A DNA stretch of 63,953 nucleotides, filler included, from Tortispora ganteri (lineage: Eukaryota): the NCBI GenBank assembly GCA_003707115.1. It is 21 parts of 21 records of this genome, joined end to end, with 100 filler letters (N's around TTAATTAATTAA, not from the genome) between each part and the next. Parts side by side here need not be neighbours in the genome. Positions count along the whole stretch, not along the records: positions 41,463 to 44,308 come from PPNB01000113.1; positions 44,409 to 47,217 come from PPNB01000114.1; positions 47,318 to 50,089 come from PPNB01000115.1; positions 50,190 to 52,955 come from PPNB01000116.1; 17 more parts are not named here. The stretch is one strand, 5' to 3'. This document shows positions 11,356 to 55,789 of this stretch, piece after piece. A program made the translations under genes and the position numbers. Under the pieces are notes generated by a model that made no database searches, was not told the origin of the DNA, and saw only the letters and a program-made list of their open reading frames with translations. Each line of letters opens with the position of its first letter. The first letter of the stretch is position 1.

Positions 11356-11528
11356 GTTCAGTTCAATCTTTATATATTTTAATAACAATTTACGTCCGAT
11401 ACGGTAATATTAATAATAACAATAATAATAATAATAACACTGTAGAATACAGTATTTGGCTGTGTCAATTGACACAAGAGACTTTTTTGGGTTGTACCCT
11501 CCCCTAACGCGTACACATTTGTAGACAT

Positions 11529-12734: not shown

Positions 12735-12922
12735 TTTTGTGTAGCGAAATGAACACGTAGATGTCCACCGAAATTATATAAGCAAACTAAAGTGTAAACT
12801 TTAATCTGACAATTGAGCCGGGTAACAAGAAACCCGCGAAAAGTTTCCAAGCGATTCACACACATACCTACCGAAAGCATCTCGACTGGTACAAAAGGGT
12901 AGCAGACAGCGACGCAAGAAAA

Positions 12923-20480: not shown

Positions 20481-20497
20481 CCAGTTAATATTCATTA

Positions 20498-22291: not shown

Positions 22292-22653
22292 TGTGGTTGT
22301 AGTGGTGGTTGTTTAGTGTAAACAAGCCAGAACCGCGGTAAAAGTCCCAAAAAAGTAGCTTAGAAAACGAAATCATGTGGGGAGTAACCTTGTCAGCTAA
22401 ACACCATTCACGACGCGTACTGCGCAGTTGTACTTACAAAATTATACGATTTATCTCTGATAAAATAATATAAGACTGAAGAACAATGATCAGAACAATA
22501 TATCACCTTGAACATATACCCCAAGCTGCGGTAACGCAAATGTGATGAACGTGCACCGCAATTCCGATTTGGGAAATAACGAGGTTAGGGTTTTAAAGAT
22601 TAAAACTTCTATATATTTATCTCGGAGCGTAAATTATTTAAGAGCGAAAGACA

Positions 22654-23615: not shown

Positions 23616-23827
23616 TTTGAGATTCTTAAGTTATTGTTCGACAGAAGAGCTTTATGAAGTGGTGGTGAATCTGCACTTAACGAACACAAAAATGGCCGAT
23701 AAGTTGTTAAGTTTCGAAAGCTGTGTGGTTCCGCCACATAATAGTAAGCCTGCATGAGCGTTAGAGAATTCCTATTGGTTAAGATTATGTTGTCATGGCA
23801 ATTTGTGCAGGTCACAAGAAGGAGATC

Positions 23828-24366
23828 TGTTGGAGAACTACCCGAATAGGGTAATGTAGCTTAGGGTTTTGAGCGCAATGAGAGAAACTACGTGTAGATA
23901 CGTGAAGTATTAGAAAGAGGTAAACCTTGATCAGTAATAAGATCTGGGCTAAAAACCTCTTGTCGTACAATATTCTTGATAATGTAACTGTCTTAACAAT
24001 GCAGATGTATTGCACTGCAGGGAAGCGGTCTGTGTATTATGCTTAGACTTTGGTCTGAAGCTTGTCACTATACGCTGGTTGACTGTTTAGAGACTGTTGT
24101 CTGTCTGCCTTGATCAGGGGCAGATGGACGTCTATTTATCATGTTCGTGGGATTTGTAAAATCACGTCACGTATGTTAATTACCTCGTTATTTGAGGTAT
24201 ATAAGCCCAATTGGGGTCTTCTATGCGTGATATGGAAGAGCTTTAGGAGAAAGCTACCGCATTTGTAATATGAGCGGTTTTATCTTTATTATGAAGGTTG
24301 GGAAAAAGAACTAGTACTAGGTTTTACGGTTTGGGAACTTGTGCCCTTGACAACCGTCTTCCAACA
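23828..24366 (-). repeat. 3' LTR, 539 bp, termini TGTTGG...CCAACA
   Basis: Inverted 6-bp termini; boundaries independently confirmed by filled/empty comparisons at 44110 and 52758. Confidence 0.95.
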
Positions 24367-24375
24367 CTCCCTCTC
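24367..24375 (-). promoter_or_regulatory. Polypurine tract (GAGAGGGAG) priming plus-strand synthesis
   Basis: Purine run immediately 5' of the LTR TG on the minus strand. Confidence 0.85.
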
Positions 24376-24498: not shown

Positions 24499-26258
24499 TC
24501 ACTTGTTTGGTCGAGTAAGAAGTTTGCGCAATTGACCCAAATGTTCGTGTCGTGGCAGTGCTTTAGTCAATACGTCGGCGAGTTGGAGCTCCGATTGAAT
24601 GTAATGCAACGAGACGTCTTTTCGTTGTGCGAATTCTCGAACCGCGTAGACTTTCACATCAATGTGCTTCATCTTTGAGCGATTGAAGTCACCTTTAATA
24701 GCTGCAATGCAGGCTTGATTGTCTTCATAAAGTGCAACGCCTTCAGGATGATGTATCCCTATTTCAGATAGCTTTCGTTTAAGATAAACGGCTTCAATGG
24801 CGGCTGAAGATATAGCAATGTATTCTGCATGCGCTGTGGCAAGTGCAGTAACTTTTTGCTTGACTGAGGCCCAAGCTATGGGGCCGCCAGCTTGAAGTAA
24901 GACCCACCCTGTGGTAGATTTGCAATCCGTGCGATTTTGATAACTGGCATCAGCATATCCATGTATGTGCTCATCGGCTCCATACTTGTAGAGTATACCA
25001 TGGTCTTTTGTATGTTTAAGATATTGAAAGATTCGTTTGACTGCGTTCCAGTGTGCTTTGGTAGGACAAGTAGAGAAGGATGCAAGAGCATTTACAGAAA
25101 ATGCTATGTCAGGACGAGTGAGGTTTGTAAGAAACATCAGTGTCCCTATTGCACTTCTGAACTCATTGAAGTCCTCATTTGGTTGAGGCTTCGTAATAAT
25201 ATCCAGTCCAACAGCCATAGGAGAAGATTTTTCAGCAGCGTCAGTTAATTCGAATCTAGCCAGTGCTCGTTCTATGAAGAAACTTTGAGATATATGAATA
25301 CCGTCTTCGGTGTGTTTGACATTCAGGCTTAAGAACGAGGAGATTGGTTGTTGAATAGATGCCGTATACTTGGAGTTTAGTTGTTGATAGAAGTCAAGGA
25401 TTAAATCCTCAGATTCTGCAATGACAGCAATGTCGTCAACATAGATCACAAGCATAATATTCTTTTTATAAAAGAAGCAATCATCATAGGTGTTCTGAGT
25501 AAAACCCAGTTCTTTGATGGTTTCAACCAATGTTTCATTCCAGCGTCTTGGTGCCTGTTTGAGACCGTACAGAGTTTTCTTGAGTTTGCAGACTCTGTCT
25601 GTTCCGTCTTCGAACCCTTGAGGTTGTTTCATATAAACATTTTCTTCCAGTTTAGCATTGAGAAAGGCTGTCTCGACGTCAATTTGTGCTGTGTACCAAT
25701 TTCTGGAGGCAGCAATTGCAAGGAGCATCCGTACCATAGTATAGGAGGCCACGCTTGCATAAACTTCGTCAAAGTTCAGTCCTTTTATTTGCTGAAAACC
25801 TTTTGCAACGAGTCTAGCTTTGAATTTGTCAAAGACGCCTTCAGCTGTCTCTTTGACTCTGAAGACCCACATGTTATCAATTGGTTTGATGCCTGGAGGA
25901 CATTTGACCAGTTCCCATGTTTCTTTTGCGATCAGGGAAGTTAATTCGCGGTTGCATGCATCGTTCCATTTTTCTCTGAGTAAAGATTTCTGAGCTTGGA
26001 AGATGGACTTAGGGGGGTCTGTTACTTCAGGTAATAAGAGGTACTCATCGACTGCGACTTTGTTTGAGGCTGGATTTGAATTAATTTCTCCTTTCTGAGT
26101 GAAGCCAAGATTTATTGATTCGGTCGATATTTTGCCGATTTTGGGCAGTTTGGACTCGCAAATCATCAAAGCTCCTTTTTCATTGATTCTCCCTCGCTTT
26201 GGTGATGCGGGAGGAGATAAACCGGTGGTGGTGGGTGCAGGCAGAATTCGTATATGCT
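24499..26258 (-). CDS. Copia Pol polyprotein, C-terminal part (RT + RNase H), intact frame, 5'-partial
   Basis: KARLVAKGF.Q, IDVETAFLN, LYGLKQAPR.W, YVDD, TRPDIAF, YADA, YEDNQ, KHID, QLADVLTK; frame open to the contig end. Confidence 0.97.
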
Positions 26259-26358
26259 NNNNNNNNNNNNNNNNNNNNNNNNNNNNNNNNNNNNNNNNNN
26301 NNTTAATTAATTAANNNNNNNNNNNNNNNNNNNNNNNNNNNNNNNNNNNNNNNNNNNN

Positions 26359-37526: not shown

Positions 37527-38272
37527 CTTCTGATTGGCTACCCGTAAACTTTAACCTTATTTGTGCATCAGAGCTTCTGATTGGTCAGTTTCAAACTTTA
37601 ACCTTATTTTGTACCGTGGCTTCTGATTGGTCGATCTAAAAGCTTAACCTTCGATCTAAAACTTTAACCTTCGATCGGATCGATCGCCTCTTATTGGTCG
37701 ATCTAAAAGCTTAACCTTCGATCTAAAACTTTAACCTTCGATCGGATCGATCGCCTCTGATTGGTCGATCTAAAAGCTTAACCTTCAATCTAAAACTTTA
37801 ACCTTCGATCGGATCGATCGCTTCTGATTGGTCGATTTAAAAGCTTAACCTTCGATCTAAAACTTTAACCTTCGATCGGATCGATCGCTTCTGATTGGTC
37901 GATCTAAAAGCTTAACCTTCAATCTAAAACTTTAACCTTCGATCGGATCGATCGCCTCTTATTGGTCGATCTAAAAGCTTAACCTTCGATCTAAAACTTT
38001 AACCTTCGATCGGATCGATTACCTCTGATTGGTGATCTAAAAGCTTAACTTTCGATCGGATTGATCGCCTCTTATTGGTCGATCCAAAAGCTTAACTTTC
38101 GATCGAATCGATCGTCTCTGATTGGTTCATCCAGACCAAACTTTAATTGTAAAATAAAGCTTCTTATTGGCTGATTTCTTACCCTAACCTGATTATGCAA
38201 TTAGGCCTTCTGATTGGTCAATATTGTTTCAAACTCTAATTTTTTGAATAAACTGTGCAGCTAATTGATTGG
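37527..38272. repeat. Non-coding tandem array: 46-47-bp units expanded to six 67-bp units, each with a CCAAT box
   Basis: ATTGG at 37533, 37580, 37626, 37693, 37760, 37827, 37894, 37961, 38028, 38074, 38121, 38166, 38213, 38268; the 67-mer is the 47-mer plus a duplicated 20-bp TCGATCTAAAA..TTAACCT subunit. Confidence 0.95.
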
Positions 38273-39150
38273 CTAATATAAGGTTTATACTGCCTAATCG
38301 GGATATATTGCCTCGGCTCGAAACCTTAATCGCTAAAGATCGTCAACCATTATAGTAATATATCTCTGTAATACTGTATGGTTTCACTGCGCACTGAAGA
38401 TACAGTAGTTATAGCATAAAATTAATGTCTTCGGCTAAAGTATTCGCAATACTCCATTTGCCGTAGCCTGAAGATCTATAATATCTTCTGCTTTGTCTCA
38501 TTNNNNNNNNNNNNNNNNNNNNNNNNNNNNNNNNNNNNNNNNNNNNTTAATTAATTAANNNNNNNNNNNNNNNNNNNNNNNNNNNNNNNNNNNNNNNNNN
38601 NNCGGTCAAGCAGATAATAAGGTTCTTAAATTTTGCTTTCGGTAGATTCTAGAGCGCAACGAAGTTGGTGAACCTTGATATTGGCATATCGCACTATAAA
38701 AAGATTGAGGATTTCATTAACTGAAGGTTAAATGAATGATCTAATTCTTGAACGTGCATAAAACCTACATACTTATTAAGTAGAGCTTAGTTTGATCTTT
38801 ACTTAAGTTATGGAAAAACTCCTCCTTACTTGCCAACGGCCAGTGCACATCATTGACTGATCAATACCTTCCACGGAATAACAATCTACAATGGATTTGC
38901 TTTTTCAGAATAGAACCAGTGTCGACAACGCTGCAAGTTGCTGGATGGTACATGCACATTGTTTCCAGTTACATTCTGCGGCATATCGAGCGCACGAGTT
39001 TGAGGCTGAAGTGTTTTAGCCTCAATGCTAATAACTCTAAATACGCAGCAACCAATCAAGGTTAACTTTAAACTTAGGCATTGTGACAGGATTCGGCGAT
39101 TAGAAGAATGTCAATAAGGCTATGCCGAATAAGACAACGATAAGTTTTCA

Positions 39151-41362
39151 TTGAAGACGGCAACAAGTTTATTATGGTTTTTGCTAGCAGCTATAATAAG
39201 CGCAAGCGCGGCTTCTTGCCATCAATCGCTCTCTATGGTACAGACAATATACAGTACTATCGTGGAAACGAACACGCTCATTTGCAGCCCACCTGTTGAA
39301 ACTTCTACTGTCTACGGACGTTTGTATACTTCTGAGTCTGCTGCTAAACGTGTGACTGTCTACGACGACCAATGCGCGCCTGGTGTGTCTACAGTTTCAG
39401 GCTGGTACTGCAACCAATGCACACCCGCTACGGTGACCTATGTACCTAGTCCGCCGGTCGTCAAAGGCGACTGTACCTATGTCTGGTCATACTACGAGTC
39501 CGTGTCTATGTCCGTGTCGTTTGACGTGCACGTCTCTATTGAGATTCCAGTCATTATCACGGAGACTATAGCACCTACGCCTCCGCCTACTCACCCCGCT
39601 ACAGCTACCGCGACTGTCCCTACGACTGTGCCCACTACTGTGCCTGCAGACGCTTGCTCAACCGCACCTGCCTACAGCGCAGGCCAAGCATTTGCCGCTA
39701 TATACGAGGGGGCAGTAGACTTGTCGTCGAGCGATATCCAGAACGGTGAATACAGGAATTACCAGCGAGACAATGTGGCCGCTACAGTCTCGTCAAACTC
39801 TATATCGGCATCAGTATCCGAACAGGGCTATGTCGAGTACCTTTTCTACCTTGAACCATCAGCCGACATTGCGTTTGTAGATGTACAGGCACAGGATCCT
39901 AGTAACTTTGCAGATACTTACGCGTACCTCTTTGATGGCGAATTGGCTATGCGGTGCGATAACATGGACCTTATTGGTTCTTCTGGCTCTTCTGCCACTG
40001 CCCCTCTGGACAGTTCGAATGGGTTCAAAGCAAGTTTTCCGGTCGACTTTGCTGGTGGATACTTGTACCCAGTCCGTATAGTCATTCCTGTTGCGGGCTT
40101 TGGATCGGCGGGTCAATTCAAACGTCAGGCCGGAGTCTCTGTGATCTTGAGTGTCATGTTTACTACCATCAGCGGCGAGACAATAGCTATTTCAGTATAT
40201 GGCTCTACAAGTGGATCACCTGAGCCGGTTAATCCTATTCCTTCAGTTAGTTCAGCCTTATCGATTATATCGGAATCTAGGGTTTTTCCGGAGTCTTCTG
40301 TTGTTTCTAGCTTTCCAGTTGTTTCTAGCTCTCCAATTGCACCTAGCTCAGTCGTTGCTAGCTCATCAGTTGCTGCTAGCTCATCAGTTGCTGCTAGCTC
40401 ATCAGTTGCTGCTAGCTCATCAGTTGCTGCTAGCTCATTAGTTGTTTCTAGCTCATCAGTTGCTGCTAGCTCATTAGTTGTTTCTAGCTCTTCAATTGCA
40501 CCTAGCTCAGTTGCCTCAGGATCTGCTATTGTTTCCAGTTCTTTAGTTGCTGCTAGCTCAATTGCATCTAGATCCTCTATCGCTTCCGGGTCGTCTGCAT
40601 CTTTCGACTCTAGCATCGGCTCGGGATCTTCAGCTTCCCCCAGCTCTTCTACCGCATCGGGCTCGAGTCTCGCCTCAAGCTCTAGCGTGACTTCCGTTTC
40701 AACTACATTATATTCTCCAGCAATTCCATCTGCCTCTAGCACTGCACTGAAATCCAGTTTTGGACGGAGCTCATATGGAAATTCTAGCACTAGTCAACTC
40801 TCTTTTGCCTCAAGTGCAGCAGCCGGATCCTCAGCTGGCTCTAGCTCCTCAGTTGCATCAGGATCCTCAGCTGCACCCGGCTCTAGTGTTTTATCAGGAT
40901 CTTCGACTGTATCAGGATCTTCGGCTGCACCCGGCTCTCGTGTTTTATCAGGATCTTCGGCTGCGTCAGGATCCTCAGCTGCACCCAGCTCCAGTGTTGT
41001 ATCAGGATCTTCAGCTGCGTCAGGATCCTCAGCTGTACCCAGCTCTAGTGTTTTATCAGGATCTTCGGCTGCACCCAGCTCTGGTGTTGTATCAGGATCT
41101 TCGGCTGCGTCAGGATCTTCAGCTGCACCCGGCTCTAGTGTTTTATCAGGATCTTCGGCTGCGTCAGGATTTTCGGCTGCTTCAGGATCTTCAGCTGCAT
41201 CCAGCTCTAGTGTTATATCAGGATCTTCGGCTGTACCCGGCTCTAGTGTTGTACCAGGCTCATCAGTAGGCCCCGGATCTTCGAGTTTGACTGCAAGTTC
41301 TAGTGTTACATCCGGCTCAGTTATTTCTACTGCTTCAAGTAATGCACTAAGTTCTAGTATTG
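39151..41362 (+). CDS. Secreted adhesin-like protein: signal peptide, Cys-rich N-domain, PA14/GLEYA-like domain, Ser/Ala/Gly stalk; 3'-partial, start codon problematic
   Basis: Hydrophobic leader LLWFLLAAIISASAA, LYPVRIVI strand, FKR Kex2-like site, 18-bp SSSVAA and SGSSAA repeats. Confidence 0.8.
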
Positions 41363-41473
41363 NNNNNNNNNNNNNNNNNNNNNNNNNNNNNNNNNNNNNN
41401 NNNNNNTTAATTAATTAANNNNNNNNNNNNNNNNNNNNNNNNNNNNNNNNNNNNNNNNNNNNAACGACATATC

Positions 41474-42256
41474 ATGACTAAAACTCGATTCATACCATGT
41501 AAATATTACCGGGAAGGGTACTGTAAAAAGAGAGATCTTTGTGAGTATAATCATAAAAGGATAAAAAAACTAGTCAAAGCTGATTCCGTAAATGAGACTT
41601 GTTCAGTTTGCAAGGAACCGATCAATAAGCGGACAGTTTGTCTCATGCTCTTCTGCATGCACAGTTTTTGTTCCACATGCATCACAGACTGGAGTAGAAC
41701 ATGTAAAACTGAAAAGAAATCGTTATCTTGTCCACTATGTCGGAAAGGTGAGCGGTACATTGTCGTGCCAGTGTTCCCTAAGAATCGTCAAAAGGCGTTA
41801 GATCTTTTTGAAGACTCGTTATTACATATGTTTGAAACTTCCGAACAGAATATGGTTGCAAACCCGGCATTAATAAGCATCGCGAAATACTTGAGTAAAT
41901 ACAAATCTGAAATTGACCAGCGTGAATCTTTAGCTTATGAATTGAGTGCTTTCTTTAAGGAATCAAGCTATCTCTTAGTTGAGTCTTTCCAGACCATGAA
42001 GAAACAGCCGTTAATTGTCAATCTATGGAAAAGACTGTATGTTACACTGGCTGTAGCATACGTAAATAGCGAGGTATCACTCTGTGAGGATATTATTTTT
42101 GTTTTGCATACGCTTTATGATCCACAAAAACCTATGACTGAAGTCTACCATGAAGTTGAAACCTTTATGGACAAGTATCCACGATTAGCGCACAATTTTA
42201 GATCAATTTTGAACGCACCGCATGTTGAATCTAAAGCAGATTGTTTTTTTTTTTGA
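41474..42256 (+). CDS. Second allele of the CCCH-RING gene, 16 aa shorter
   Basis: Near-identical to 10209-11039; T11 versus T12 run creates TGA. Confidence 0.75.
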   Translation: MTKTRFIPCKYYREGYCKKRDLCEYNHKRIKKLVKADSVNETCSVCKEPINKRTVCLMLFCMHSFCSTCITDWSRTCKTEKKSLSCPLCRKGERYIVVPVFPKNRQKALDLFEDSLLHMFETSEQNMVANPALISIAKYLSKYKSEIDQRESLAYELSAFFKESSYLLVESFQTMKKQPLIVNLWKRLYVTLAVAYVNSEVSLCEDIIFVLHTLYDPQKPMTEVYHEVETFMDKYPRLAHNFRSILNAPHVESKADCFFF

Positions 42257-42388
42257 ATCTTTCAGCTTTATTAGTCGACACTCCTCACGCAATTAAAAAA
42301 TAATCGGTTCACCACTTCTTGCACGGGACCCTGCCTGCTTTGTCCATTGGGACTTAGCCTTTACCATAACATCTTTCTTCTGTCGACA

Positions 42389-42618
42389 ATGAGTACCGCC
42401 TCATCGCAAGTCGAAAAAGTTGAAGCTTCAATCAAAGAATTGGTAAGTATCACAATTTTGTGTGAAACTTTACGATTATTTTTTTCTAACAATAACGGAA
42501 GATGAATGAGATTCAGCGTAATGCGGAAATGATAACACAACACACCAAGGAACTGGATCAACGACTAGACGAGATGGAAGCTAAATTCTCTAAACCGAAA
42601 CCTCAGATTAGTAAATGA
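42389..42618 (+). CDS. Second allele of the spliced HSBP1-like micro-gene
   Basis: Same splice signals and frame as 11126-11355; TCT>TCA synonymous change. Confidence 0.7.
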
Positions 42619-42790
42619 GTTCAGTTCAATCTTTATATATTTTAACAACAGTTTACGTCCGATACGGTAATATTAATAATAACAATAATAATAATAATAA
42701 CACTGTAGAATACAGTATTTGGCTGTGTCAATTGACACAAGAGACTTTTTTGGGTTGTACCCCCCCTAACGCGTACACATTTGTAGACAT

Positions 42791-43996
42791 TTACAACTCG
42801 TCGTGAGCTTTGTTCCAGACAGCAGGGAAATCACTAACGGCCTCAGAAATAGATTTGAGAATGTTCAATTTTATAGTAGATTGATCAACCTTTTCCCGAG
42901 CAAGATTAGCAGAGTTCTTCAGGAGAGCAGTAAGGCGCGTGGTCTCCTTCTTAATGTAGTCGGCGTCCTTAGCCAGTTTGCCAAGAATCTTCTCATAAGC
43001 TTCAATATCGGTACCGTTGGCCTTGAGTTCCTGCACTTTAGTTTTGATCTCTTCCACGACAGCTGCACGGTGTTCGGCCTCGGCTTCGACAAGGGTAGCA
43101 AACAGCTCGTTAAGCTCTTCAATGACACCGGCATCAGGGTCCAAACTGCCAGAGAGAGTGCGTTTAGTTCCGACGCGTTCGCGAAGGTACTCTAAGAGAG
43201 TCTCGGCGTTTCGCTCACCCTTGTATTGTAATGGGTTCTCCTTAGCATCCTTCTTGAACAGCATAATAGTGGGGAATGTGGCAACCCCGTACTCCGTAGC
43301 GTGTCCAATACCGGTCTCTTTAGAGGTCTCGATGCGGGCAATAACGACATCCTTGTCCTTTGCAAAAATTTTAGCAAGCTGCTCGTATTCCGGAGCCATG
43401 TTCTTGCACTGCGAACACCATTCAGCAGTGAAAGCGAGGAAAACATGCTTGGTCTCGTCCAGGACGATGTCGTCCCAGTTTCCATCTGTAACTTCGACAA
43501 CTTCAGTAAGCGCCTTCCAGCCGCCAGGAGAGATTCTTTCACCAAGAGGAGTTTCCTTTGGTTTGGGTTTCACCTCTTTGGTACGCGTGGGGGCGGCAGG
43601 CTGCTCGAAGCCTTTAACTCCAGAGTGCTCTTCAACAAATTCCTTAAAAGCGTCGAGAGTACGGGCCTTTGTGAAAGTAACAGGTCCGTCAGCCTTAATC
43701 GAATTGAACATCTTGATAGTCGGGTAGCCCTGGATTTCGAACTTCTTTCCAGCGATCCTGTTCTTGTCGGCGTCGATCTTCACAATTTGAACGTCTTCTT
43801 CGTTAAAAGAGAGTCCGAGATCCTCATATACAGGAGCCATATTGCGGCAGTGGCTGCACCAGGACGCATAAAACTTCACAAGCGTCGGCTTGCCAGATGC
43901 AATAAGTTCATCTATATCTTCGTCAGTAGCAACGATAGTATCAGCTGCAACGAGGCTGGCAAACAGAGCGAGTACGAATCCGCTGGCGAATTTCAT
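42791..43996 (-). CDS. Second allele of ERp38-type PDI
   Basis: Protein identical except WCSQC for WCAQC. Confidence 0.93.
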   Translation of the reverse strand: MKFASGFVLALFASLVAADTIVATDEDIDELIASGKPTLVKFYASWCSHCRNMAPVYEDLGLSFNEEDVQIVKIDADKNRIAGKKFEIQGYPTIKMFNSIKADGPVTFTKARTLDAFKEFVEEHSGVKGFEQPAAPTRTKEVKPKPKETPLGERISPGGWKALTEVVEVTDGNWDDIVLDETKHVFLAFTAEWCSQCKNMAPEYEQLAKIFAKDKDVVIARIETSKETGIGHATEYGVATFPTIMLFKKDAKENPLQYKGERNAETLLEYLRERVGTKRTLSGSLDPDAGVIEELNELFATLVEAEAEHRAAVVEEIKTKVQELKANGTDIEAYEKILGKLAKDADYIKKETTRLTALLKNSANLAREKVDQSTIKLNILKSISEAVSDFPAVWNKAHDEL

Positions 43997-44109
43997 TTTT
44001 GTGTAGCGAAATGAACACGTAGATGTCCACCGAAATTATATAAGCAAACTAAAGTGTAAACTTTAATCTGACAATTGAGCCGGGTAACAAGAAACCCGCG
44101 AAAAGTTTC

Positions 44110-44308
44110 TGTTGGAAGACGGTTGTCAAGGGCACAAGTCCCAAACCGTAAAATCTAGTACTAGTGCTTATTTTCCCAATCTCCTTTAAATAAAGTTGAA
44201 CCCCGCTGAACAAAAGCAGTATGCTCCTGGGCTCTTCCGTATCAATCAGAAAGAACACGAATAGTTACTTTCTATTTAACTAATGGTGGGGTAATTGATC
44301 TTAATCAA
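44110..44308 (+). mobile_element. Ty1/copia LTR, 5' (U3) end, diverged subfamily; insertion absent from the allele at 12847/12848
   Basis: TGTTGGAAGACGGTTGTCAAGGGCACAAG matches the reverse complement of the 24366 end; begins exactly where identity with contig 10198-13397 stops. Confidence 0.93.
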
Positions 44309-44408
44309 NNNNNNNNNNNNNNNNNNNNNNNNNNNNNNNNNNNNNNNNNNNNTTAATTAATTAANNNNNNNNNNNNNNNNNNNNNNNNNNNNNNNNNNNN
44401 NNNNNNNN

Positions 44409-44914
44409 GGCACATGTACGAACCTAGTACGGATGATTTGGAGAGAATGAAAGAAATGGAAAAAGAGCGCATCGAACGTGAGAAAGAAGCGCAAATGAAA
44501 AAAATACGCGCGCAACGCTATAAAGACTCTTATCATGATTTGAAAGATGATTGGCAGGTCGAAAAGGAGATGATATTCAAAAACACAGAATTAGATTACG
44601 ATAAAGAGCAGGTCATGAAAGATTTGGATGCCTCTTCAAAAGCGGAAGCTATCGCTAAACAAGCAGCCAAAAAGCCCGCTATTGGTAAAATTATTACTGA
44701 TCCTGCAAATGATGCAAATTCTCTGAAAGAACTTGCAGATGCAGATGAGGGTGTTATAGAGGACGACATTATTGACGCTAATGCCGACCCCCGAAAGAGA
44801 GCTGCACAGGAAGCCACTTTGAAAAGAAACAAATTGAACATTGTTCCTGTTGACAGAGTTGCTGAAGAAAGTACAGAGAAAGACAAAGAGGCTAAGAATG
44901 AAGGAGTTCTATGA
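44409..44914 (+). CDS. Second allele of 6830-7335
   Basis: Near-identical, two amino-acid differences. Confidence 0.65.
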
Positions 44915-45280
44915 TTATTTAGCAATTGGTTTTGTTTTATACTGTGTACGTTTTGGTTTTTTTTTTGGTTTTTTCTCAGTATGCTTTATTACTTAGTTAT
45001 ACAAGTTAAAAGCACGGTATTGCATACATTCATTTCCAAAGATATTATCTACGCATTCTAGAACTTTGCGAATTTTTACTTGTTTCATATGCTATTTTAT
45101 TCACTATGCGGCGATTATTAGCTGCATTGACTAGCAAAATTTATCACATATGCATGTCTCCTCTTCTTTCCCCGTTGTCTTACCTGTTGTCAACAGCCTC
45201 CTAACCGCACCTACCCCTTTTGCTTACACCGATCACTATCCACCCCGGAATCTCACTTTAACTTAGATAAATGATTTATA

Positions 45281-47217
45281 ATGTCTTCATACAACTCCTC
45301 GTATAGTCGTTCAAATAAGCGACCAGCTACTAGTAATCTCAATGCTTCTATAATTGAAGAAGAAGCTGTTGAGTCTGGAGAGGATACCGCCCAACCAACT
45401 ACTGTTACTGTCCCTATATGGTTTCACGAATCACATATATGTCAATACCCTGCTGTAATTGATTTATCGCTATTTCCAGATATTAAAGAGAACTTTGATA
45501 TTATTGAATTAGTTCCTGGATCAGAGCGGCAACGGCGACTTACGAGATCCTCACGCGAAGGCTCTGTGACGAGATCTTCGCATGCCTCCAGCGAGCGGGA
45601 GACATTCATTAAATCAGCAAATATTAATTCTCACAATATAAATCATGCAGCTTCAAATTCTGGTAGTTTCTATTTTGTTGCAAGAGCATTACCGCCTGAG
45701 GTTGGCAAAGGTCAGAACCTCAAACTGTCCGTTCTTCGTGAAGGCCTGCAACATTCCCTGTCTCTGTTCCCACGGGCAATGGTCAATTTACGCCGAGTTG
45801 AACACCGTGAAAGTATTATTGCTGATCTTATAGAAATTGGAATTAAAGATATTAACCTTTCCAGGGCTGATCAATGGCATATCTCTGCCAGTCTCAGAAA
45901 TCAATGTGTTTACTCCTCAGAAAGGATCACGTTCTTGAAGGCTATACGTGTTTCTGTAAATTCGATATTCAAACGAGGTCGCAAACAATTCTCGGCACTT
46001 ATCGGACCGAACACAAAAATTGTATACCGCACAGAATCCGCTAAATATACAATACTTCTACAGATGTCCCGTGAAATGTGGTACTTTGACGAACATGGAG
46101 AGATCCTGTTCCATAAAGTCATCAACTCGCTTCTTCCTGAGCTAATATCCAGATGGAATACGGCCGGCGTATCGCATTTTGTTTCAATAATCTTGTTCAC
46201 TTCGGTTGATTTATCAAATGGAACTACTCCTTATCGACCAGGAAAACGACCAAAGAAAACTCTCGATTATTACAAGGTAATTGTAAATAACGTTGCATTA
46301 ACGAGATGGAGCGATATCATGCAAACACTACGAAAGGAATTTTGTGCCTTCTTAGAGAATGTACTCCAGCAACCTGATATTGCCAATTCAGATGATACTT
46401 CTTCAGAAACACCTGAACGCATAATCGGCTCTTTATTACCCGCTATTCAAGGAAATATACTCGAAGCTATTAACATGTCTTTGACACAAGCTGACAGAGA
46501 TACTACTGATACTACTTTTAAGCACACAGGTATACAAACAGTGATTGTTACTCCAAGTGCAGGTCTCTTTGACGTTGACTACGATCTGCTTTACCGCACA
46601 GGCGAAATCTTGTTAGAAGAAGGAACCGGTATTGACTTTGTTTCATTGCAGAATATGCCTTTATATGTTTCACCTGCACTGAGATTTCTTGAAACAGAAT
46701 CTAATGACCTCATATATTGTCTGCCACACTGGGCGCAGATATCTTTTTGGCCAAATTTCGAGAGGGCTTATACATTTACATCTTGGAAACCTAGCTGTCA
46801 AATGTACGAGATTCAAATGACTGGAGTAATGGAAGACGAGCTTAGTTCTATTAGTATAGAGCCTTTGTTGCCTCCTCCAGCTGAAAAGTCTGAACATCAG
46901 TGGATGACTGAATATGATGAATCCATATTTCTTCCTGTTCATCCAGATTCTGATTTCCCTGATTTAATGAAACAATTTGGATTTGGAAAGGAATCAGTAA
47001 GCCCTGATGATTCGAGGTACGGTCATACAAGTAGCGAGCTATCTGGCTCAGTAAAGAATTCTCTTGATAGAGGTTTTGAGAATAGTTTCCCGGATAGAAT
47101 GACTCCGACAACTGACATTGGATCTTCTGATAAAGATTCAAAGGCTCCAAAACACACGGTAGTGGGATTTAAAATCTCCTCGACATCTTCTGAAAAGACC
47201 TCCAACACCGATTCAAC
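45281..47217 (+). CDS. IML1: IML1, second allele, 3'-partial
   Basis: Near-identical to 7705-9637 with scattered SNPs. Confidence 0.95.
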
Positions 47218-47317
47218 NNNNNNNNNNNNNNNNNNNNNNNNNNNNNNNNNNNNNNNNNNNNTTAATTAATTAANNNNNNNNNNNNNNNNNNNNNNNNNNN
47301 NNNNNNNNNNNNNNNNN

Positions 47318-49694
47318 TGCTTTGTCGTCTACTCCAAGCAGTCTATCTTTTGCTTTGTCGTCTACTCCAAGCAGTCTATCTTTTGCTTTGTCGTCTACTC
47401 CAAGCAGTCTATCTTCTGCTTTGTCGTCTACTCCAAGCAGTCTATCTTTTGCTTTGTCGTCTACTCCAAGCAGTCTATCTTCTGCTTTGTCGTCTACTCC
47501 AAGCAGTCTATCTTCTGCTTTGTCGTCTACTCCAAGCAGTCTATCTTCTGCTTTGTCGTCTACTCCAAGCACTTTATCTTCCGCTTTGTCTGCTGCTCGT
47601 TTATCAAATCAGTCATCTGCCTTTTTCGCTCCCACTTCATTGACTTCTGTTCATTCATCGAAACATTATTCGTCTCTCGCAAATACTTCTTCTACAAACT
47701 CTCTAGATCTTTCTGCTTCATCATTTATTGAAACTCTGAACTCCACTACTAGTCTGGTTTCTTTGCTTCCTACCCCCAGCACTAACGTTGTATCCACGAT
47801 CCATTCACAATCAGCGAGTTACAACACTAGCGAAAACATTCCTTTGGACATTTCATCTGCCGCCATACCATCTTTTGCTGCTCTGTCTTCAACTGACACT
47901 CTAAGCATTTTATCGTCTACTTTATATACCTCAGTTTCATCTACTTCGACATCTACTGGAAAAGAAGTGGTACCTACTCCTCTTTGCGATTGTAATGCAA
48001 CAAGCAGTGTCGATGTTGTAGCGGCTAAAGAAGTGGTTGGCTTAACTTACGACGTCACTTGGCTTTTGACGCTCTCAGAAGAGTATAATCCGATGGATGT
48101 TTGCCAGGTTGATTTGCTTGAACCAGTTACCGAAGTGTTGTTTGCCTTTGAAACTACAGGAATAGCTGATATTGCTGATTGTAATATCACTAAACGTGTT
48201 GAGTGCGTTGAGAAAGAAGGTGTTATATATGCGCCTAAGATATCTGTTCGGTATACGTTCTTCAGCGGTATAGTGATAGATTTGACTTCTGGATGTGAAG
48301 GCGGAAGCTATGCTGGTCCTTCCTACTGTTGGAAAACAGACGAACAAGACACAGATACTCTTTCTTTAGAGCTTTTATCTACTACAGTGCAAACGGATAC
48401 AGCTACTTATAGTTCTTACAGTTCTTATAGGTTTAAGACAGATGAAAATGTTCAAAGTAAACGCGATACTTCTTCTGAACACGCTGCATCATTTGTTACG
48501 AATACTATTGCTACTACTGCTAGCTCTTTTGGTCCACTGATTACACATACTGTCATTGAATCATTGCCTGTTACTATTGCTACAAAATGCGTTTCGGAAA
48601 GCTCTATGTCATCTGACCGTTGGATATATGTATGTCCTACTGACTGCTACATTCCTACTACACTACTCTGCGATTGCTCTGCCAGTCATGATACTACATT
48701 GAATGTGCATACGTCAACAGCGACGACGGAAAAAGTCATCTCTACTAAGGCTACTTTGACTGGAATTAGTACTGATGTACCTGTGACAACGCATACTATT
48801 ACCACTAAGCTACCTCCGACAATCGCTACTAGTTGTGTATACGAAAGCTCTATATCAACAGACCGCTGGATATATATTTGCCCCACTGATTGTTATATTC
48901 CTACCACGCTGATTTGTGACTGTTCTGATACGGAGACTGAATTGCCCCCGACTGAACTGCATTCGGCTACTTACGTATCTTCCGTCATTTTGACAACCGA
49001 GAGCACGAAACATGAAGAAACAGTCCCGGTCACTTCCAAGACAACGACAAGCCAACGACACACTACTCCAACGGTTATAACGACTGCCAAAGGTGTTAGT
49101 TCTGTGCCTTTGAAGACATCCACGGTTCATGTGCACAGCACCGAAACAGTTACTACTCATACTGTGACGACGAAATTGCCTCCCAGTATAGCCACTAGCT
49201 GTGTAGATGAAACTTCCATTACTTCAGACATATGGGTTTATGTTTGTCCGACAGACTGCTATATCCCTTCTACGTTAATTTGTGACTATTGCACCTCATT
49301 TGATACGGAAACTTCACCGACAAATCATGGGAAAACTAAAACCGAAACAACCGCGGTTATGAGTACTACTAAATGCGAAGATTGTACAACGGTTTCGGAC
49401 ATTACGCCCATACCCGTGACAGTCACAAGCATGCACGCAGAAGATTCAATGGGCAAGAGCTACTCAGATACAACTACAGTCACATTGACCAGATTTTTGA
49501 CTCACGGAGTTTCTTCACAAGTTACATTGACACAGAAGGTGGCGACCTCGACTACTACAGGATTTTACTTCTATAATACTGCCAATAGCAGTGATACAGT
49601 CACAGTGCCGTATTTCGGTGCAGGATGTGCAACCATTCCGAACATTTTCATTATATCGCTTTGCGGAATTATATCGTCTCTCATTTTATTCTAA
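47318..49694 (+). CDS. GPI-anchored mucin/adhesin-like cell-wall protein, 5'-partial
   Basis: 33-bp SSTPSSLSSAL repeats, a Cys-containing globular segment, three WIYxCPTDCYIP repeats, hydrophobic C-terminal GPI signal. Confidence 0.85.
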
Positions 49695-49775
49695 TATATG
49701 TGCATTGAATTATAAATATTATATTCTATTCGATACTATACCTGTAAAGAAAGCCAATTGCTCTAGTAGTAGAAA

Positions 49776-50089
49776 TTACTTCTTTCCCTGAGCAGCGACG
49801 GCCGCAGCACCAGCAGCAGCGGCTTCTGGGTCAAGATAGTAAGCAGGCTTGACAGGTTTAAAGCTGTCGTCAAGCTCATAAACCAAGGGAATACCTGTAG
49901 GAATATTAAGCTTAGATATTTCTTCGTCAGAAATGCCATCGAGGTGTTTGACCAAAGCACGAAGAGAGTTTCCATGAGCAGCCACCATGACAGTTTTGCC
50001 GGCTTTTAAATCAGGAATAATTTCGGCTTGCCAATAAGGAAGAAGACGATCTATGACAAGTTTTAGAGACTCAGTCTTGGGAAGCTCGG
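49776..50089 (-). CDS. GPM1: Phosphoglycerate mutase, C-terminal part
   Basis: [51 protein letters not shown]. Confidence 0.96.
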
Positions 50090-50189
50090 NNNNNNNNNNN
50101 NNNNNNNNNNNNNNNNNNNNNNNNNNNNNNNNNTTAATTAATTAANNNNNNNNNNNNNNNNNNNNNNNNNNNNNNNNNNNNNNNNNNNN

Positions 50190-50680
50190 GTCATGGTCTT
50201 GTCCATTGCGATTTCAATGAGTTTAATATCATGATCAGAAACGGTATAGACGAGAACAATATTCCTCCTGAAGACCAGTTTATTGTCATAGATTTCCCTC
50301 AATGTGTTTCTATTAATCACTCAGACGCTGAACGCTATTTTGATCGTGACGTTGCATCCATCCGAAGATTCTTTCAGTCGCGACTAGGGTTCCATTCTGA
50401 ATCGTATCCGCGATTCACTGAGGATGTCGTCCGAAAAGATGACATTGACGTCAGAGTTGAAGCTTCAGGCTACAGCAAAAAATCTGTCAAGGAATTTGAA
50501 CAAGCAATGGCTTCTTTGCGCGAAAAAACTGATGCTGATTATGAGTGCGAAGAATCATATGAAGATGAAAATCACGATTTCAACGACTCTGAGAATGACA
50601 ATGATTACGAATCCGATAATGACGAACTTGATACCGAATCTACTGCATCTAATGTTTCTGAATCTAATGTTATCTCATGA
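50190..50680 (+). CDS. RIO2: Rio2 3' part, second allele
   Basis: Near-identical to 19990-20480. Confidence 0.95.
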
Positions 50681-50697
50681 CCAGTTAATATTCATTA

Positions 50698-52491
50698 TCA
50701 TTGATGTACCCTGTGCGCTAAAACATCCTGTAGTTCGTTTAACGTAGCATTCATATCCGCAGGCCCAGATGTCGGCGTCACTGAGTGCACTCTCACAGTT
50801 CGCTTCACGGGCTTTATCATTCCAATTTGTGGTCCGCTAACTGCTCTGGAAGAACCTAATGTCTTCTCAATTGATGACCAAGATTGCTCAAATTGTGTTT
50901 GATCTACGCCTCGAGTGTTCCTGACACTATCTCCATCGTCATTGAATGTTCCAATGAAAGGTGAGAATGTTTCTGAGCCTGTCACAGAGGTCGAGGACAT
51001 CAAACTTGGCACTTCATAGTCTTCCGACTGACAATACGCATTACCACTTTCAGAAACAGAGCCATGGTCTGCATCTTTCGTTTGGACAAACCTCTGGAGT
51101 TGGTCTCGTCCTTTCCTCCACTCAAGCAACAAGGACTCAATATCCGTGGATATCATATCATAGTGTGCCAACAATTTCTCGGCTTTCTCTAAAGTATCTT
51201 CATTACCCATTAAGCTTTGTAGTGTTTCTTCACTCGCTAGACGTAATCTCGCCTCGATGCTATTCAATCCTCCAGAAACTGCATTCATGGCGGCTGTATG
51301 TTTAAGCAGCATATCAGATTTAGGCTTGCTTGCAGATTTCAGAGACTCTTGGATAATTTTCTGCAGATTATTGTCATAGTTGTAAGCGTCAAACATTGAA
51401 TTAACTGCCTGGCCAATAAGATTAGACACTTTATCTGTTTCTTTAGTGACGGAAACCCAGATTTCACGATCTTCGTTTTTGCCAGTAGCCTTTAAGGCTA
51501 GAAGTTCGCATATAAAAAGCTTTCTAGCAATAAATAACTTAATGAATCGCTTTTTTAGAGAAGATATAGAGGTAGATGTGTGTTCAGTTTCGGGATCGCC
51601 AATTGATAGCGCAGTGAGCTCACGTTCATCGACCTTATAGAGACTGGTGAGTGTTTTCAAAGAAAGAGGGTCACAGAAAGGTCGGATATACTCGCAGCTT
51701 CTGCATATTTGCGGAAAAACAAGCTTTAATGTAGCATCTATTGAATCCCTCAGATAGCTACAGTGTGCGTTCCGATCGATTCTGTCAATAGGCGGAGCGC
51801 GATAGCCGGGAACAGCGCTTTTGTACCCTTTTGAGTAGAGTTCTGCTTCTTGCACAATGCGTATTGACTTTGTTATCGAATAATCAAGTATATTAGAGTT
51901 ATGTACAAGTCGAGATGCAGCCTGAGCGGCATAAGTGTATAGCTGCCGCAGCTCACGTCTGCGAGAGTGAGCGTAAAAGGAGATAGCAACGCAGAGTGAC
52001 ACTACTAATAATGCGAGTTTCTTATCGTTAGATTGAAGCTGGTCGGTTTTTGAGGCCCAAGTTATAACAACACCTATTAATATTATGTAACCTGAATGGC
52101 GCAGTGTGAATGTGATTGTCTGATAACGAGGAGAAAAAAGGGGATCATGGGACTTGAATAGAGAAGAAGCGGCCCAAGTTATTCTGTCATCGAGGAGTCT
52201 GCTTCCGATAAGAGAATATCGAAACCGATCTGTCAGTTCCTGAGCTTCTGATGCGCTTATCTCGCGTGATATTGCCTTACGAAGAAGAGTTGTGAATCGA
52301 TCTTTTTTTAGCGTGGCTGGATCTGAAAGTGTTAAAGGTCTTAGAGACTTGCTGGTAGGAGCGAAGTTCTTTACGGGGACGAAGTCATCCTTAAATCTTA
52401 TTGATGCTGGTTCTATTCCCCAATTCTCAATACCGCTGTCTCGTACATAATCCGCCAATGGAGAATCGTCAAGGAAAACGGGATTTTCCAT
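50698..52491 (-). CDS. Vezatin-like gene, second allele
   Basis: Two amino-acid differences from 20498-22291. Confidence 0.7.
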   Translation of the reverse strand: MENPVFLDDSPLADYVRDSGIENWGIEPASIRFKDDFVPVKNFAPTSKSLRPLTLSDPATLKKDRFTTLLRKAISREISASEAQELTDRFRYSLIGSRLLDDRITWAASSLFKSHDPLFSPRYQTITFTLRHSGYIILIGVVITWASKTDQLQSNDKKLALLVVSLCVAISFYAHSRRRELRQLYTYAAQAASRLVHNSNILDYSITKSIRIVQEAELYSKGYKSAVPGYRAPPIDRIDRNAHCSYLRDSIDATLKLVFPQICRSCEYIRPFCDPLSLKTLTSLYKVDERELTALSIGDPETEHTSTSISSLKKRFIKLFIARKLFICELLALKATGKNEDREIWVSVTKETDKVSNLIGQAVNSMFDAYNYDNNLQKIIQESLKSASKPKSDMLLKHTAAMNAVSGGLNSIEARLRLASEETLQSLMGNEDTLEKAEKLLAHYDMISTDIESLLLEWRKGRDQLQRFVQTKDADHGSVSESGNAYCQSEDYEVPSLMSSTSVTGSETFSPFIGTFNDDGDSVRNTRGVDQTQFEQSWSSIEKTLGSSRAVSGPQIGMIKPVKRTVRVHSVTPTSGPADMNATLNELQDVLAHRVHQ

Positions 52492-52757
52492 TGTGGTTGT
52501 AGTGGTGGTTGTTTAGTGTAAACAAGCCAGAACCGCGGTTAAAGTCCCAAAAAAGTAGCTTAGAAAACGAAATCATGTGGGGAGTAACCTTGTCAGCTAA
52601 ACACCATTCACGACGCGTACTGCGCAGTTGTACTTATCAAATTAATACGATTTATCTCTGTTAAAATAATATAAGACTGAAGAACAATGATCAGAACAAT
52701 ATATCACCTTGAACATATACCCCAAGCTGCGGTAACGCAAATGTGACGAACGCGCAC

Positions 52758-52955
52758 TGTTGGAGAACTACCCGAATAGGGTAATGTAGCTTAGGGTTTT
52801 GAGCGCAATGAGAGAAACTACGTGTAGATACGTGAAGTATTAGAAAGAGGTAAACCTTGATCAGTAATAAGATCTGGGCTAAAAACCTCTTGTCGTACAA
52901 TATTCTTGATAATGTAACTGACTTAACAATGCAGATGTATTGCACTGCAGGGAAG
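52758..52955 (-). mobile_element. Ty1/copia LTR, 3' (U5) end; insertion absent from the allele at 22556/22557
   Basis: 197/198 identical to 23828-24025; starts exactly where identity with contig 19990-23089 stops. Confidence 0.96.
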
Positions 52956-53504: not shown

Positions 53505-55789
53505 CTAGAGAGGAAACTCGAAATGAATGTCAAAAAAGCTCGAGTATTCACTGTAGACCACAAATCGCAACGGCGTCCACCCCTCCGACAATGACCGATC
53601 AATAGACCAAACGGCCCTTGACCCCAATGCGTGCACGAGTTTCCATCCACCGCTTCCGATTGCCTCTATGTCCCCGCACCTCATCCCGCTTTCCCCAACA
53701 AACATATACGCTAAGTAAGGGGAAGGGGGCCCATAGACAGTATTTATCCCGTTCGGTCCCTGAACATATACCAGCACCTCTGTCACTGCATTTACATTAT
53801 TGTAGGGGATACGTACATAACGCTCAACAATATCCGCGTCAACCTCGCTGAAATTCCCCACCCGGTACTTCCCATCGGCTACCTCCGTTTCATTGTACTC
53901 CCTAAGGTCCACCGCCCACTCTCGCGCCAGCAGCGTCTGTGAAGGTTCGCACTTGCAAGCGTTTGACACCACTCCACAGCTGCTGCTACTCGAGGCGCTA
54001 GAACTCCACTGAGCTGAGCTGGATAGGCTCGAACTGACACTCGAACTAGAACTGGAACTCAAACTAGAACTCAGACTAGAACTCAAACTAGAACTAGAAC
54101 TAGAACTAGAACTAGAACTAGAACTAGAACTAGAACTAGAACTAGAACTAGAACTAGAACTAGAACTAGAACTAGAACTAGAACTAGAACTAGAACTAGA
54201 ACTAGAACTAGAACTAGAACTAGAACTAGAACTAGAACTAGAACTAGAACTAGAACTAGAACTCAGACTAGAACTGGAACTCAAACTAGAACTCAGACTA
54301 GAACTCAAACTGGAACTCAAACTGGAACTCAAACTAGAACTAGAACTAGAACTAGAACTAGAACTAGAACTAGAACTAGAACTCAAACTAGAACTAGAAC
54401 TAGAACTAGAACTCAAACTCAAACTAGGACTAGAAATTGAACTCGAATTCAAACTAGAACTAGACCTAGAACTAGAACTCAAACTAGAACTAGAACTCAA
54501 ACCAGAACTAGAACTAGAACTGCTTAACACCAATGAAGATCCCACAATTCCAGACGAAGAAACTGTCAATCTGCTAGAGTTGGCCGTCGATGTCAGCAAG
54601 ACGCTTGAGTTGCTGTAGATCGAAGATGGCAAAGCACTCGAGTTGCTGTACATCGATGTTGTCAAAGCACTCGAGTTGCTGTACATCAATGTTGGCAAAG
54701 CACTCGAGTTGCTGTACATCGACGTCGGCAAGACACTTGAGTTGCTGTAGATCGAAGATGTTAAGACACTCGAGTTGCTGTAGATCGACGATGGCAACGC
54801 ATTCGAGTTGCTGTACATCGACGATGGCAAAGCACTCGAGTTGCTGTACATCGATGTCGGCAAGACGCTTGAGTTGCTGTACATCGAAGTTGATAACACG
54901 CTTGAGTTGCTATAGATCGACGATGGCAACGCACTCGAGTTGCTGTAGATCGAAGTTGTTAAGACGCTTGAGTTGCTATAGATCGATGTTGGCAAGAGAC
55001 TCGAGTTGCTGTAAATTGATGATGGCAAGGCGCTCGAGTTGCTATAGATCGACGATGGCAACGCACTCGAGTTGCTGTAGATCGAAGTTGTTAAGACGCT
55101 TGAGTTGCTATAGATCGATGTTGGCAAGAGACTCGAGTTGCTGTAAATTGATGATGGCAAGGCGCTCGAGTTGCTGTACATCGACGTCGGCAAGACACTT
55201 GAGTTGCTGTACATCGACGATGGCAAAGCACTCGAGTTGCTGAAAATCGAAGTTGGTAAGACACTCGAGTTGCCAGACGAAGTTGTTAAGGCACTCGAGT
55301 TGCTGTACATCGAAGTTGATAACACGCTTGAGTTGCTGTAGATCGACGATGGCAAAGCACTCGAGTTGCTGTACATCGACGTCGGCAAGACGCTCGAGTT
55401 GCTGTACATCGACGTCGGCAAGACGCTTGAGTTGCTGTACATCGAAGTTAATAACACGCTTGAGTTGCTATAGATCGACGATGGCAACGCACTCGAGTTG
55501 CTGTAGATCGAAGTTGTTAAGACGCTTGAGTTGCTATAGATCGATGTTGGCAAGAGACTCGAGTTGCTGTAAATTGATGATGGCAAGGCGCTCGAGTTGC
55601 TGTAAATTGATGATGGCAAGGCGCTCGAGTTGCTGTACATCGACGTCGGCAAGACACTCGAGTTGCTGTACATCGAAGATGGCACGGCACTCGAGTTACT
55701 ATAGATCGATGATGGCACGGCACTCGAGTTGCTGTAGATTGACGATGGCAAAGCACTCGAGTTGCTGAAAATCGAAGTTGGTAAGACAC
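53505..55789 (-). CDS. Ser-rich adhesin-like protein with 11-aa NSS repeats, poly-Ser and a C-terminal PA14/GLEYA-like domain; 5'-partial
   Basis: (LPTSMYSNSSA)n as in 26359-28680; C-terminal AYMFVGE..MRC....IGSGG...WTPLRFVV resembles the domains in 3-965 and 39151-41362. Confidence 0.78.
54045..54522. repeat. Coding hexanucleotide microsatellite (GAACTA)n, encoding poly-Ser (TCT-AGT)n
   Basis: Perfect run of roughly 29 units at about 54088-54264 with degenerate flanks. Confidence 0.95.

Follow-up and report, generated by a model that had tools for sequence, protein, structure and literature searches.

The DNA analyzed here (hereafter the window) is a 63,953-nt stretch from the Tortispora ganteri assembly GCA_003707115.1, made up of a chain of 21 small separate contigs with spacers (N's around TTAATTAATTAA) between them. 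The best named protein match of the host was to Tortispora caseinolytica, at 90% identity. The organism is a small-genome budding yeast. Sensitive blastn and nhmmer searches identified only three copies of an LTR in the window. The single complete copy, 539 nt in length (23828..24366, minus strand; TGTTGG...CCAACA), serves as the 3′ LTR of an element on the minus strand of contig c8 and is located upstream of VMA1, at 212 nt from the start codon of that gene. It is adjoined upstream by a polypurine tract, read from the sequence as GAGAGGGAG on the minus strand (24367..24375), and the 3′ part of pol ends 135 nt from the LTR, as a 585-aa ORF on the minus strand (24502..26256) inside which the contig stops. 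The polypurine tract and the minus-strand reverse transcriptase ORF that follow the c8 LTR identify 24366 as its U3 end and 23828 as its U5 end.

Residues 112–347 of this ORF match the RVT_2 reverse transcriptase family (PF07727, E = 1.8e-67). The ~240 residues beyond it matched no Pfam family and, judging from their position, are presumably RNase H. No integrase domain was detected by Pfam search in the 3′ part of pol within the window, and the integrase region of the element lies outside the window; full-length relatives of the reverse transcriptase carry integrase PF00665 together with RVT_2. The best of these relatives among the matches listed are mostly plant copia elements with 28–41% identity, and the protein search returned no close yeast relative among the matches listed. 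Other retroelement domains were absent from the 25 ORFs scanned, out of 54 of at least 150 aa, with overlapping and allelic duplicates left out. Because it combines RVT_2 with LTR termini TG...CA and a polypurine tract, the element is a Ty1/copia-type (Pseudoviridae) LTR retrotransposon, and the location of the reverse transcriptase toward the 3′ end of pol fits that class.

The two other LTR copies are pieces at the ends of contigs c14 and c17, at insertions that we call sites A and B; the c8 insertion is site C. Each insertion shows one junction, as the contigs stop inside the LTR. The site A piece (44110..44308, plus strand) comprises the first 199 nt from the U3 end and is 77–80% identical to the c8 LTR at that end (E = 3.5e-27), while the site B piece (52758..52955, with the element on the minus strand) comprises 198 nt from the U5 end and is 99.5% identical to the c8 LTR. 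Because the c14 LTR is only 77–80% identical to that of c8 and c17, the site A insertion and the c8/c17 LTR belong to diverged subfamilies.

Both contigs have LTR-free allelic counterparts in the window. Contig c14 (41463–44308) is 99.3% identical to c4 (10198–13397) up to 44109 and then diverges completely, and c17 (50190–52955) is 99.2% identical to c7 (19990–23089) up to 52757, again followed by complete divergence. The insertion points at sites A and B are exact because these allelic contigs (~99.3% identical) lose homology at the LTR edge, and no microhomology was found at either junction. The insertions are real, recent and heterozygous. A sequence-only reading of the window had described both as fully defined sites in which GGTAAC precedes the LTR by exactly 21 bp, at unrelated loci and with opposite element orientation, and our analysis bears this out to the base. 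At site A, GGTAAC at 44083–44088 is followed by 21 nt (44089–44109) and by TGTTGG at 44110; at site B, GGTAAC at 52731–52736 is followed by 21 nt (52737–52757) and by TGTTGG at 52758. The c14 flank abuts the U3 end of its LTR and the c17 flank abuts the U5 end. The 21-nt offset is thus identical at two unrelated loci with both edges exact.

In the filled allele of site A, GGTAAC lies within CCGGGTAAC (44080..44088, plus strand) and overlaps CGGGTAA at 44081. The empty allele carries the same CCGGGTAAC, followed by 21 nt (12818..12847, plus strand), with GGTAAC at 12821–12826, CGGGTAA at 12819 and the insertion point between 12847 and 12848. At site B, the filled allele has GGTAAC in GCGGTAAC (52731..52736, plus strand), which is not a full Reb1-type core, and the empty allele (22530..22556, plus strand) has GGTAAC at 22530–22535 with the insertion point between 22556 and 22557. 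If a 5-nt target duplication is assumed, the geometry of the two empty sites is the same, with the motif, 16 nt, and then 5 nt at the junction.

All three visible insertions (3/3) lie in Pol II promoters, 75–265 nt from start codons, and two of them, sites A and B, are in short divergent promoters. The site A promoter (12735–12922, 188 nt) separates the minus-strand gene of an ERp38-type disulfide isomerase from the plus-strand TOM22 gene; the motif lies mid-promoter, and the insertion point is 113 and 75 nt from the respective ATGs. The 362-nt site B promoter stands between a Vezatin/Inp2-like gene (minus strand) and an Nro1/Ett1-like gene (plus strand), whose ATGs are 265 and 97 nt, respectively, from the insertion point. 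An exact look-up of five flanking proteins gave no match in the collection searched, and an atlas search with the Vezatin-like protein yielded its family but no informative taxon. We found no tRNA genes and no Rfam RNA genes in the whole window. Around sites A and B, the flanks covered (~2.6 kb to one side of the insertion, ~0.55 kb to the other) contain no tRNA or other Pol III gene. The targeting rules known from budding yeasts do not explain these sites, because no Pol III gene is nearby.

As to which factor might read the motif, we take the Reb1-type core to be TTACCCG. The minus strand at site A reads GTTACCCGG, which contains this core, and that at site B reads GTTACCGC, which is one C short of it. 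The distinction drawn earlier between a full Reb1 match at site A (CGGGTAA) and a variant at site B is therefore accurate, with one G of the core missing in GCGGTAAC and the core present at site A only. The core 7-mer occurs seven times in the window, corresponding to five distinct loci by allelic pairs, against an expectation of ~5 by a rough hand estimate for ~50 kb and both strands, so it is not over-represented. GGTAAC also fits what we take to be the RFX half-site, RGYAAC. A TTAGGG at 22585–22590, presumably of Tbf1 type, lies 28 nt rightward of the site B junction. Reb1 is reported among candidate integrase partners of Ty1 in one proteomic screen (PMC9673352). Among the matches listed in a literature search on Reb1 and LTR-retrotransposon integration, none describes Reb1-guided integration, and those returned for Tortispora and retrotransposons had nothing about these elements in the title or the start of the abstract.

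To estimate the chance of a common motif, we drew random positions from the window's non-redundant contigs and scored any hexamer that two flanks had in common at an equal offset within 60 nt. Such a match arose in 1.2% of cases for a single flank pair; the figure was 3.7% for trials with the three visible flanks and 9.5% over all eight comparisons from the five available flanks. The chance of a few percent proposed from the sequence alone is fair for the narrowest reading but is an underestimate when the freedom in choosing the comparison is allowed for (9.5%). The resulting range of 1–9% precedes any counting of the many other patterns that a reader might have flagged. Beyond the hexamer, 20 of 60 columns agree between the flanks of sites A and B, and other flank pairs agree at 12–24 of 60. 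No other 5-mer or 6-mer was common to flanks of different sites, and the right flank of neither empty site, A or B, has GTTACC at the mirror position. GGTAAC/GTTACC is rare in the window, with nine occurrences at six distinct loci by allelic pairs, two of which are sites A and B.

At site C, the flank next to the c8 LTR shows GGCAAT (23797..23802, plus strand) 25 nt from the LTR, as the sequence-only reading had reported for VMA1, and ATTTGT stands at the place expected for the motif, with no GGTAAC at the 21-nt offset. The count for GGTAAC at that offset is accordingly two of three visible insertion flanks. GGCAAT, the closest look-alike, has two of its six letters different from GGTAAC and is shifted by 4 nt from the expected position. 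An imperfect X-box-like GTTGTCATGGCAAT was also observed at site C.

Further flanks were sought in public data. Metagenome scans with the exact U3-end 22-mer and U5-end 23-mer of the LTR returned 0 loci each. Two public runs of the same organism contained fractions of 0.58 and 0.56 of the sampled c8 words, and in their contigs the summed depth over the LTR reached ~2400–2900, compared with ~80 for unique flank (~30x at both LTR ends), a ratio that is not a copy number. One public contig of the same organism ends precisely at the c8 LTR edge. The flanks from public contigs, among the loose ends listed, are merged consensus sequences of two to three contigs with agreement of 0.58–0.67. GGTAAC/GTTACC at the offset is absent from the majority consensus of three further U5-side flanks and three further U3-side continuations among the loose ends listed, so that no more than one of the three per side could have the motif. 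This is weak evidence.

Taking these observations together, we find that recent heterozygous Ty1/copia-type insertions into short Pol II promoters of a small-genome budding yeast, with a GGTAAC that the promoters have in common by coincidence, are the best explanation, and one that probably holds. Ordinary explanations exist for finding the insertions in promoters: where a genome is compact, only those outside coding DNA survive, and LTR elements may also generally favor open, nucleosome-free promoter DNA. With only three insertion edges visible, the GGTAAC that two promoter sequences share at the 21-nt offset from the LTR edge is most likely a coincidence and not proof of a new targeting system, and we infer that no motif-specific tether is at work.

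A looser, Tf1-like promoter preference is possible, although we regard it as improbable. The elements would enter nucleosome-free promoter DNA that general regulatory factors of any kind keep open, without a single motif or an exact offset, so that the hexamer match would be chance and the closeness to factor sites would not. This accommodates the 3/3 insertions 75–265 nt from Pol II start codons, two of them in short divergent promoters, as well as the lack of Pol III genes in the window. It also accommodates the position of site A 21 nt from what we take to be a perfect Reb1-type core and the presumed Tbf1-type TTAGGG at site B. In a compact genome, however, selection alone would be expected to leave three surviving insertions in intergenic DNA, and promoters commonly contain short factor-like motifs.

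More doubtful still is an integrase tethered, in either orientation and at a distance of about two helical turns, by a factor that reads GGTAAC, either a Reb1-type Myb protein or one recognizing an RFX-type half-site. An identical offset at unrelated loci, both with exact edges, is what such a tether would give, and the equal geometry of the empty sites, with a 5-nt duplication assumed, would be expected from a fixed tether if the element entered in random orientation. The single-pair chance, which is the a priori one, is 1.2%, two of the six distinct loci of a rare motif are these very sites, and the setting in Pol II promoters without tRNA or Rfam RNA genes in the window agrees. The RFX half-site fit that we assume for GGTAAC and the imperfect X-box-like sequence at site C would also be in its favor. 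Against this, the motif is found at only two of three flanks, the third having just the displaced look-alike with two of its six letters altered, and the chance rises to 9.5% over the eight flank comparisons. Moreover, because only site A has the Reb1-type core, as we understand its consensus, no single known factor fits both sites. The two LTRs also come from diverged subfamilies, and the merged public-contig consensus, weak as it is, lacks the motif. A fixed offset beside a bound factor has precedent in Tf1 and Sap1 (PMC5741268), and Reb1 as a reported candidate Ty1 integrase partner (PMC9673352) points the same way. It is correspondingly unlikely that the element, in an early-branching, Tortispora-like budding yeast, is a copia-type counterpart of Tf1/Sap1 that would use the factor as a ruler and integrate at a distance of 16 nt plus the target duplication.

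An assembly artefact, in which the joins of flank and LTR are chimeric contig ends, is hardly credible and was rejected: small leftover contigs do make up the window, and the LTR pieces end at 199 and 198 nt, matching a 199-nt exact overlap between the ends of other contigs in the window, but that length accounts for where contigs stop and not for where LTRs start, both joins fall precisely at the LTR terminus TGTTGG with no common sequence at the join, the complete c8 LTR has this terminus at its boundary as well, and the public contig ends at the c8 LTR edge too.

Several well-studied retrotransposons provide a comparison. The integrase of Ty1 in Saccharomyces cerevisiae binds the Pol III subunit AC40. 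The element described here belongs to the same superfamily, with an RVT_2 reverse transcriptase toward the 3′ end of pol, and its LTR start, TGTTGG, resembles what we take to be that of the Ty1 LTR; unlike the Ty1 situation, no contig here contains a tRNA or Rfam RNA gene. In the same yeast, the integrases of Ty3 and Ty5 are tethered to chromatin- or DNA-bound host proteins (TFIIIB and Sir4, respectively), and Ty3 inserts at a near-fixed position. Unlike Ty3, the insertions here have no Pol III gene at their sites, and unlike Ty5, they occupy active-looking housekeeping promoters (TOM22, VMA1, disulfide isomerase) rather than silent chromatin. Tf1 inserts in Pol II promoters, as observed here, yet it is a Ty3/gypsy-type element, in contrast to the Ty1/copia type indicated by RVT_2. 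Tf1 insertions cluster at −9 and +19 from the Sap1 motif, according to a paper that cites Hickey et al. 2015 for this, and the rule was derived from very many de novo insertions set against 5000 motif matches (PMC5741268), whereas here there are two sites.

If the offset rule held across many insertions, it would mean that a copia-type element locates safe sites in a new manner, with a promoter-bound factor replacing Pol III or silent chromatin; this would be a mode of targeting that is not known to have been described for budding yeasts, and it would provide a simple, sequence-defined system for studies of integrase tethering. As they stand, the data reveal only a little-studied yeast with a recently active copia-type family that has heterozygous promoter insertions adjoining essential-type genes (TOM22, VMA1), a situation ordinary for compact yeast genomes. 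At sites A and B, the empty and the filled alleles can now be placed to the base.

Two of the LTR insertions in the window are real and precisely defined. The homology of contig c14 to its LTR-free allele c4 ends at 44109 (site A) and that of c17 to its LTR-free allele c7 ends at 52757 (site B) in allelic alignments, so the edges leave no room for interpretation, and the flank and the LTR share no sequence at the join of either site. The LTR begins with its terminus TGTTGG at 44110 and 52758, and GGTAAC lies at 44083-44088 and 52731-52736, with 21 bases between in each case, as the sequence-only reading had stated. In the empty alleles, the hexamer starts at 12821 (junction 12847/12848) for site A and at 22530 (junction 22556/22557) for site B.

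The 63,953 bases are 21 separate contigs of 2.5-3.3 kb, ordered largest first, and not one locus. Distances and synteny across the 20 spacers (3317-3416, 6730-6829 etc.; each 100 bases, 44 N + TTAATTAATTAA + 44 N) are meaningless. Four allelic pairs at 99.2-99.3% identity, namely c4/c14 (99.3% over 2650 nt), c7/c17 (99.2% over 2568 nt), c3/c15 and c16/c19, indicate that the source genome is heterozygous (or mixed) and that contigs left unresolved were strung together. Over 199 nt, the start of c6 (16754-16952) is exactly reverse-complementary to the starts of c7 (19990-20188) and c17 (50190-50388), and parts of one RIO2-type kinase gene (RIO1/Rio2_N domains) lie on both sides, so c6 and c7/c17 adjoin one another in the genome; the assembler apparently used an overlap length of 199 nt. 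The LTR pieces end with their contigs 199 nt (c14) and 198 nt (c17) into the LTR. As this matches the exact 199-nt overlap of the other contig ends, the stop is a product of contig cutting by the assembler and is uninformative on the element.

Other contigs carry long tandem-repeat ORFs (26311-28680, 39133-41361, 47319-49691, 53508-55787, 55892-58210 and 58709-61357) with repeat periods of 12, 18, 33 and 102 nt. These ORFs have no credible Pfam family, the one listed match, to the coronavirus NSP15_N model, being spurious (0 passing stretches), and probably encode repeat-rich cell-surface proteins; the repeats are the likely reason that these contigs stayed unplaced. Contigs c13 and c20 match in inverted orientation at 87-93%, and c12 holds a 67-nt tandem repeat (37552-38087; ~6-8 copies, up to 97% identity) outside any long ORF.

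The one complete LTR, in c8 (23828-24366), has 539 nt (TGTTGG...CCAACA), and immediately after it comes a polypurine tract in complement, GAGAGGGAG. A minus-strand pol ORF ending 135 nt before the LTR encodes a reverse transcriptase of the Ty1/copia type (RVT_2, E 1.8e-67), and a search of a large protein collection gave generic copia polyproteins as its relatives, with 28-41% identity. This layout places the element on the minus strand, with the U3 end at 24366 and the U5 end at 23828. The piece in c17 is 99.5% identical to the U5 end of c8 (1 mismatch in 198), and identity of the c14 piece to the U3 end is only 77-80%; the opposite orientations first noted for the two elements thus hold, and by LTR identity the two insertions are assigned to diverged subfamilies. 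No further LTR copies occur in the window beyond c8, c14 and c17, and no other retroelement domain was found in the 25 ORFs scanned out of 54 of at least 150 aa, with overlapping and allelic duplicates left out. In public contigs of the same organism, the summed depth of the LTR ends is ~30 times that of unique flank; depth is no copy number, yet this suggests that the family probably has tens of copies. Neither LTR end had a metagenome match (0).

All three insertions lie upstream of genes. At site A, the insertion splits a divergent promoter of 188 nt: the ATG of an ERp38-type disulfide isomerase is 113 nt away and that of TOM22 75 nt. The closest named protein to this isomerase, at 90% identity, is from Tortispora caseinolytica (next matches at most 38%), which points to a Tortispora-like budding yeast as the source. 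The divergent promoter at site B measures 362 nt, with a Vezatin/Inp2-like gene at 265 nt from the insertion and an Nro1/Ett1-like gene at 97 nt, and the c8 element lies 212 nt upstream of VMA1. In the insertion allele of site A, TOM22 keeps only 75 nt of its own upstream DNA (12848-12922; LTR from 44110), and the LTR has the same orientation as the gene. VMA1 has an apparent 98-nt intron right after the ATG (23515-23612, minus strand), with GTAAGT after the start codon and CGCTAAC and TTTAG ahead of the second exon; the joined N-terminal product resembles the start of S. cerevisiae Vma1.

We consider it likely that these are ordinary promoter insertions and that the GGTAAC match at this offset is a coincidence. 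Random positions were drawn from the non-redundant contigs of the window, and their 60-nt flanks were compared for a hexamer at the same offset. A common hexamer arose in 1.2% of trials for a given flank pair, in 3.7% for the three flanks readable outward from the LTR edge, and in 9.5% for all eight comparisons among the five known flanks in either orientation. The motif at the offset in two of three flanks, a pattern picked post hoc, therefore has a chance level of ~1 to 10% by freedom of choice. Outside the hexamer, the flanks of sites A and B are identical in 20 of 60 columns, compared with 12-24 of 60 for other flank pairs. Public runs with window sequence comprise ~9.5 million letters of contigs; there, the merged consensus of two to three unrelated flanks per LTR end (agreement 0.58-0.67) lacks GGTAAC/GTTACC at the offset. 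At most one of three flanks per LTR end can carry the motif, which is compatible with either reading.

Loose targeting of promoters or open chromatin, with no fixed motif rule, is an unlikely alternative that draws on the empty allele of site B. TTAGGG, a Tbf1-type motif, lies there at 22585-22590 (AACCCTAA on the other strand), 28 nt right of the insertion point, and fits insertion beside whichever general regulatory factor keeps a promoter open.

Rather improbable is the originally proposed tethering of the integrase by a Reb1/RFX-like factor at a fixed offset. Only two of three flanks have the motif: the VMA1 flank reads ATTTGT in its place, and its nearest look-alike, GGCAAT (23797-23802), is shifted by 4 nt and mismatched in two letters. 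The Reb1 core is TTACCCG. Read against it, GTTACCCGG on the other strand of site A is a full match, and GTTACCGC at site B is one C short, in agreement with the full and variant sites first described; site B would not be bound by a factor that requires the whole core, and one reading GGTAAC alone would need to use site A alongside Reb1. GGTAAC also fits the RFX half-site RGYAAC, and the second half is absent at sites A and B when read against the consensus. The U5 end of the LTR (52768-52784; 23838-23854) itself contains CTACCCG, one letter off the Reb1 core, and a GGGTAA whose first base is exactly 21 nt in from the edge. Site B thus has a GGTAA word 21 nt to either side of its junction, probably by chance. 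It is scarcely credible that the joins of flank and LTR are an assembly artefact.

Ty3 integration is Pol III-directed. The same is described for Ty1 (PMC7459421); with no tRNA gene and no Rfam family anywhere in the window, such a rule did not place these copies. The nearest working precedent for a fixed offset is the fission yeast element Tf1, which shows clusters of insertions at -9 and +19 from the Sap1 motif (PMC5741268, citing Hickey et al. 2015). One proteomic screen (PMC9673352) names Reb1, Rap1 and Abf1 as candidate partners of the Ty1 integrase in subtelomeric targeting. Our literature search found no description of Reb1-guided retrotransposon integration among the matches listed, and nothing on Tortispora retroelements. 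A Reb1/RFX-like tether is thus plausible in kind and apparently undescribed but, on our analysis, unsupported here; a genome-wide census that reproduced the offset would sharply raise the interest of the motif match.
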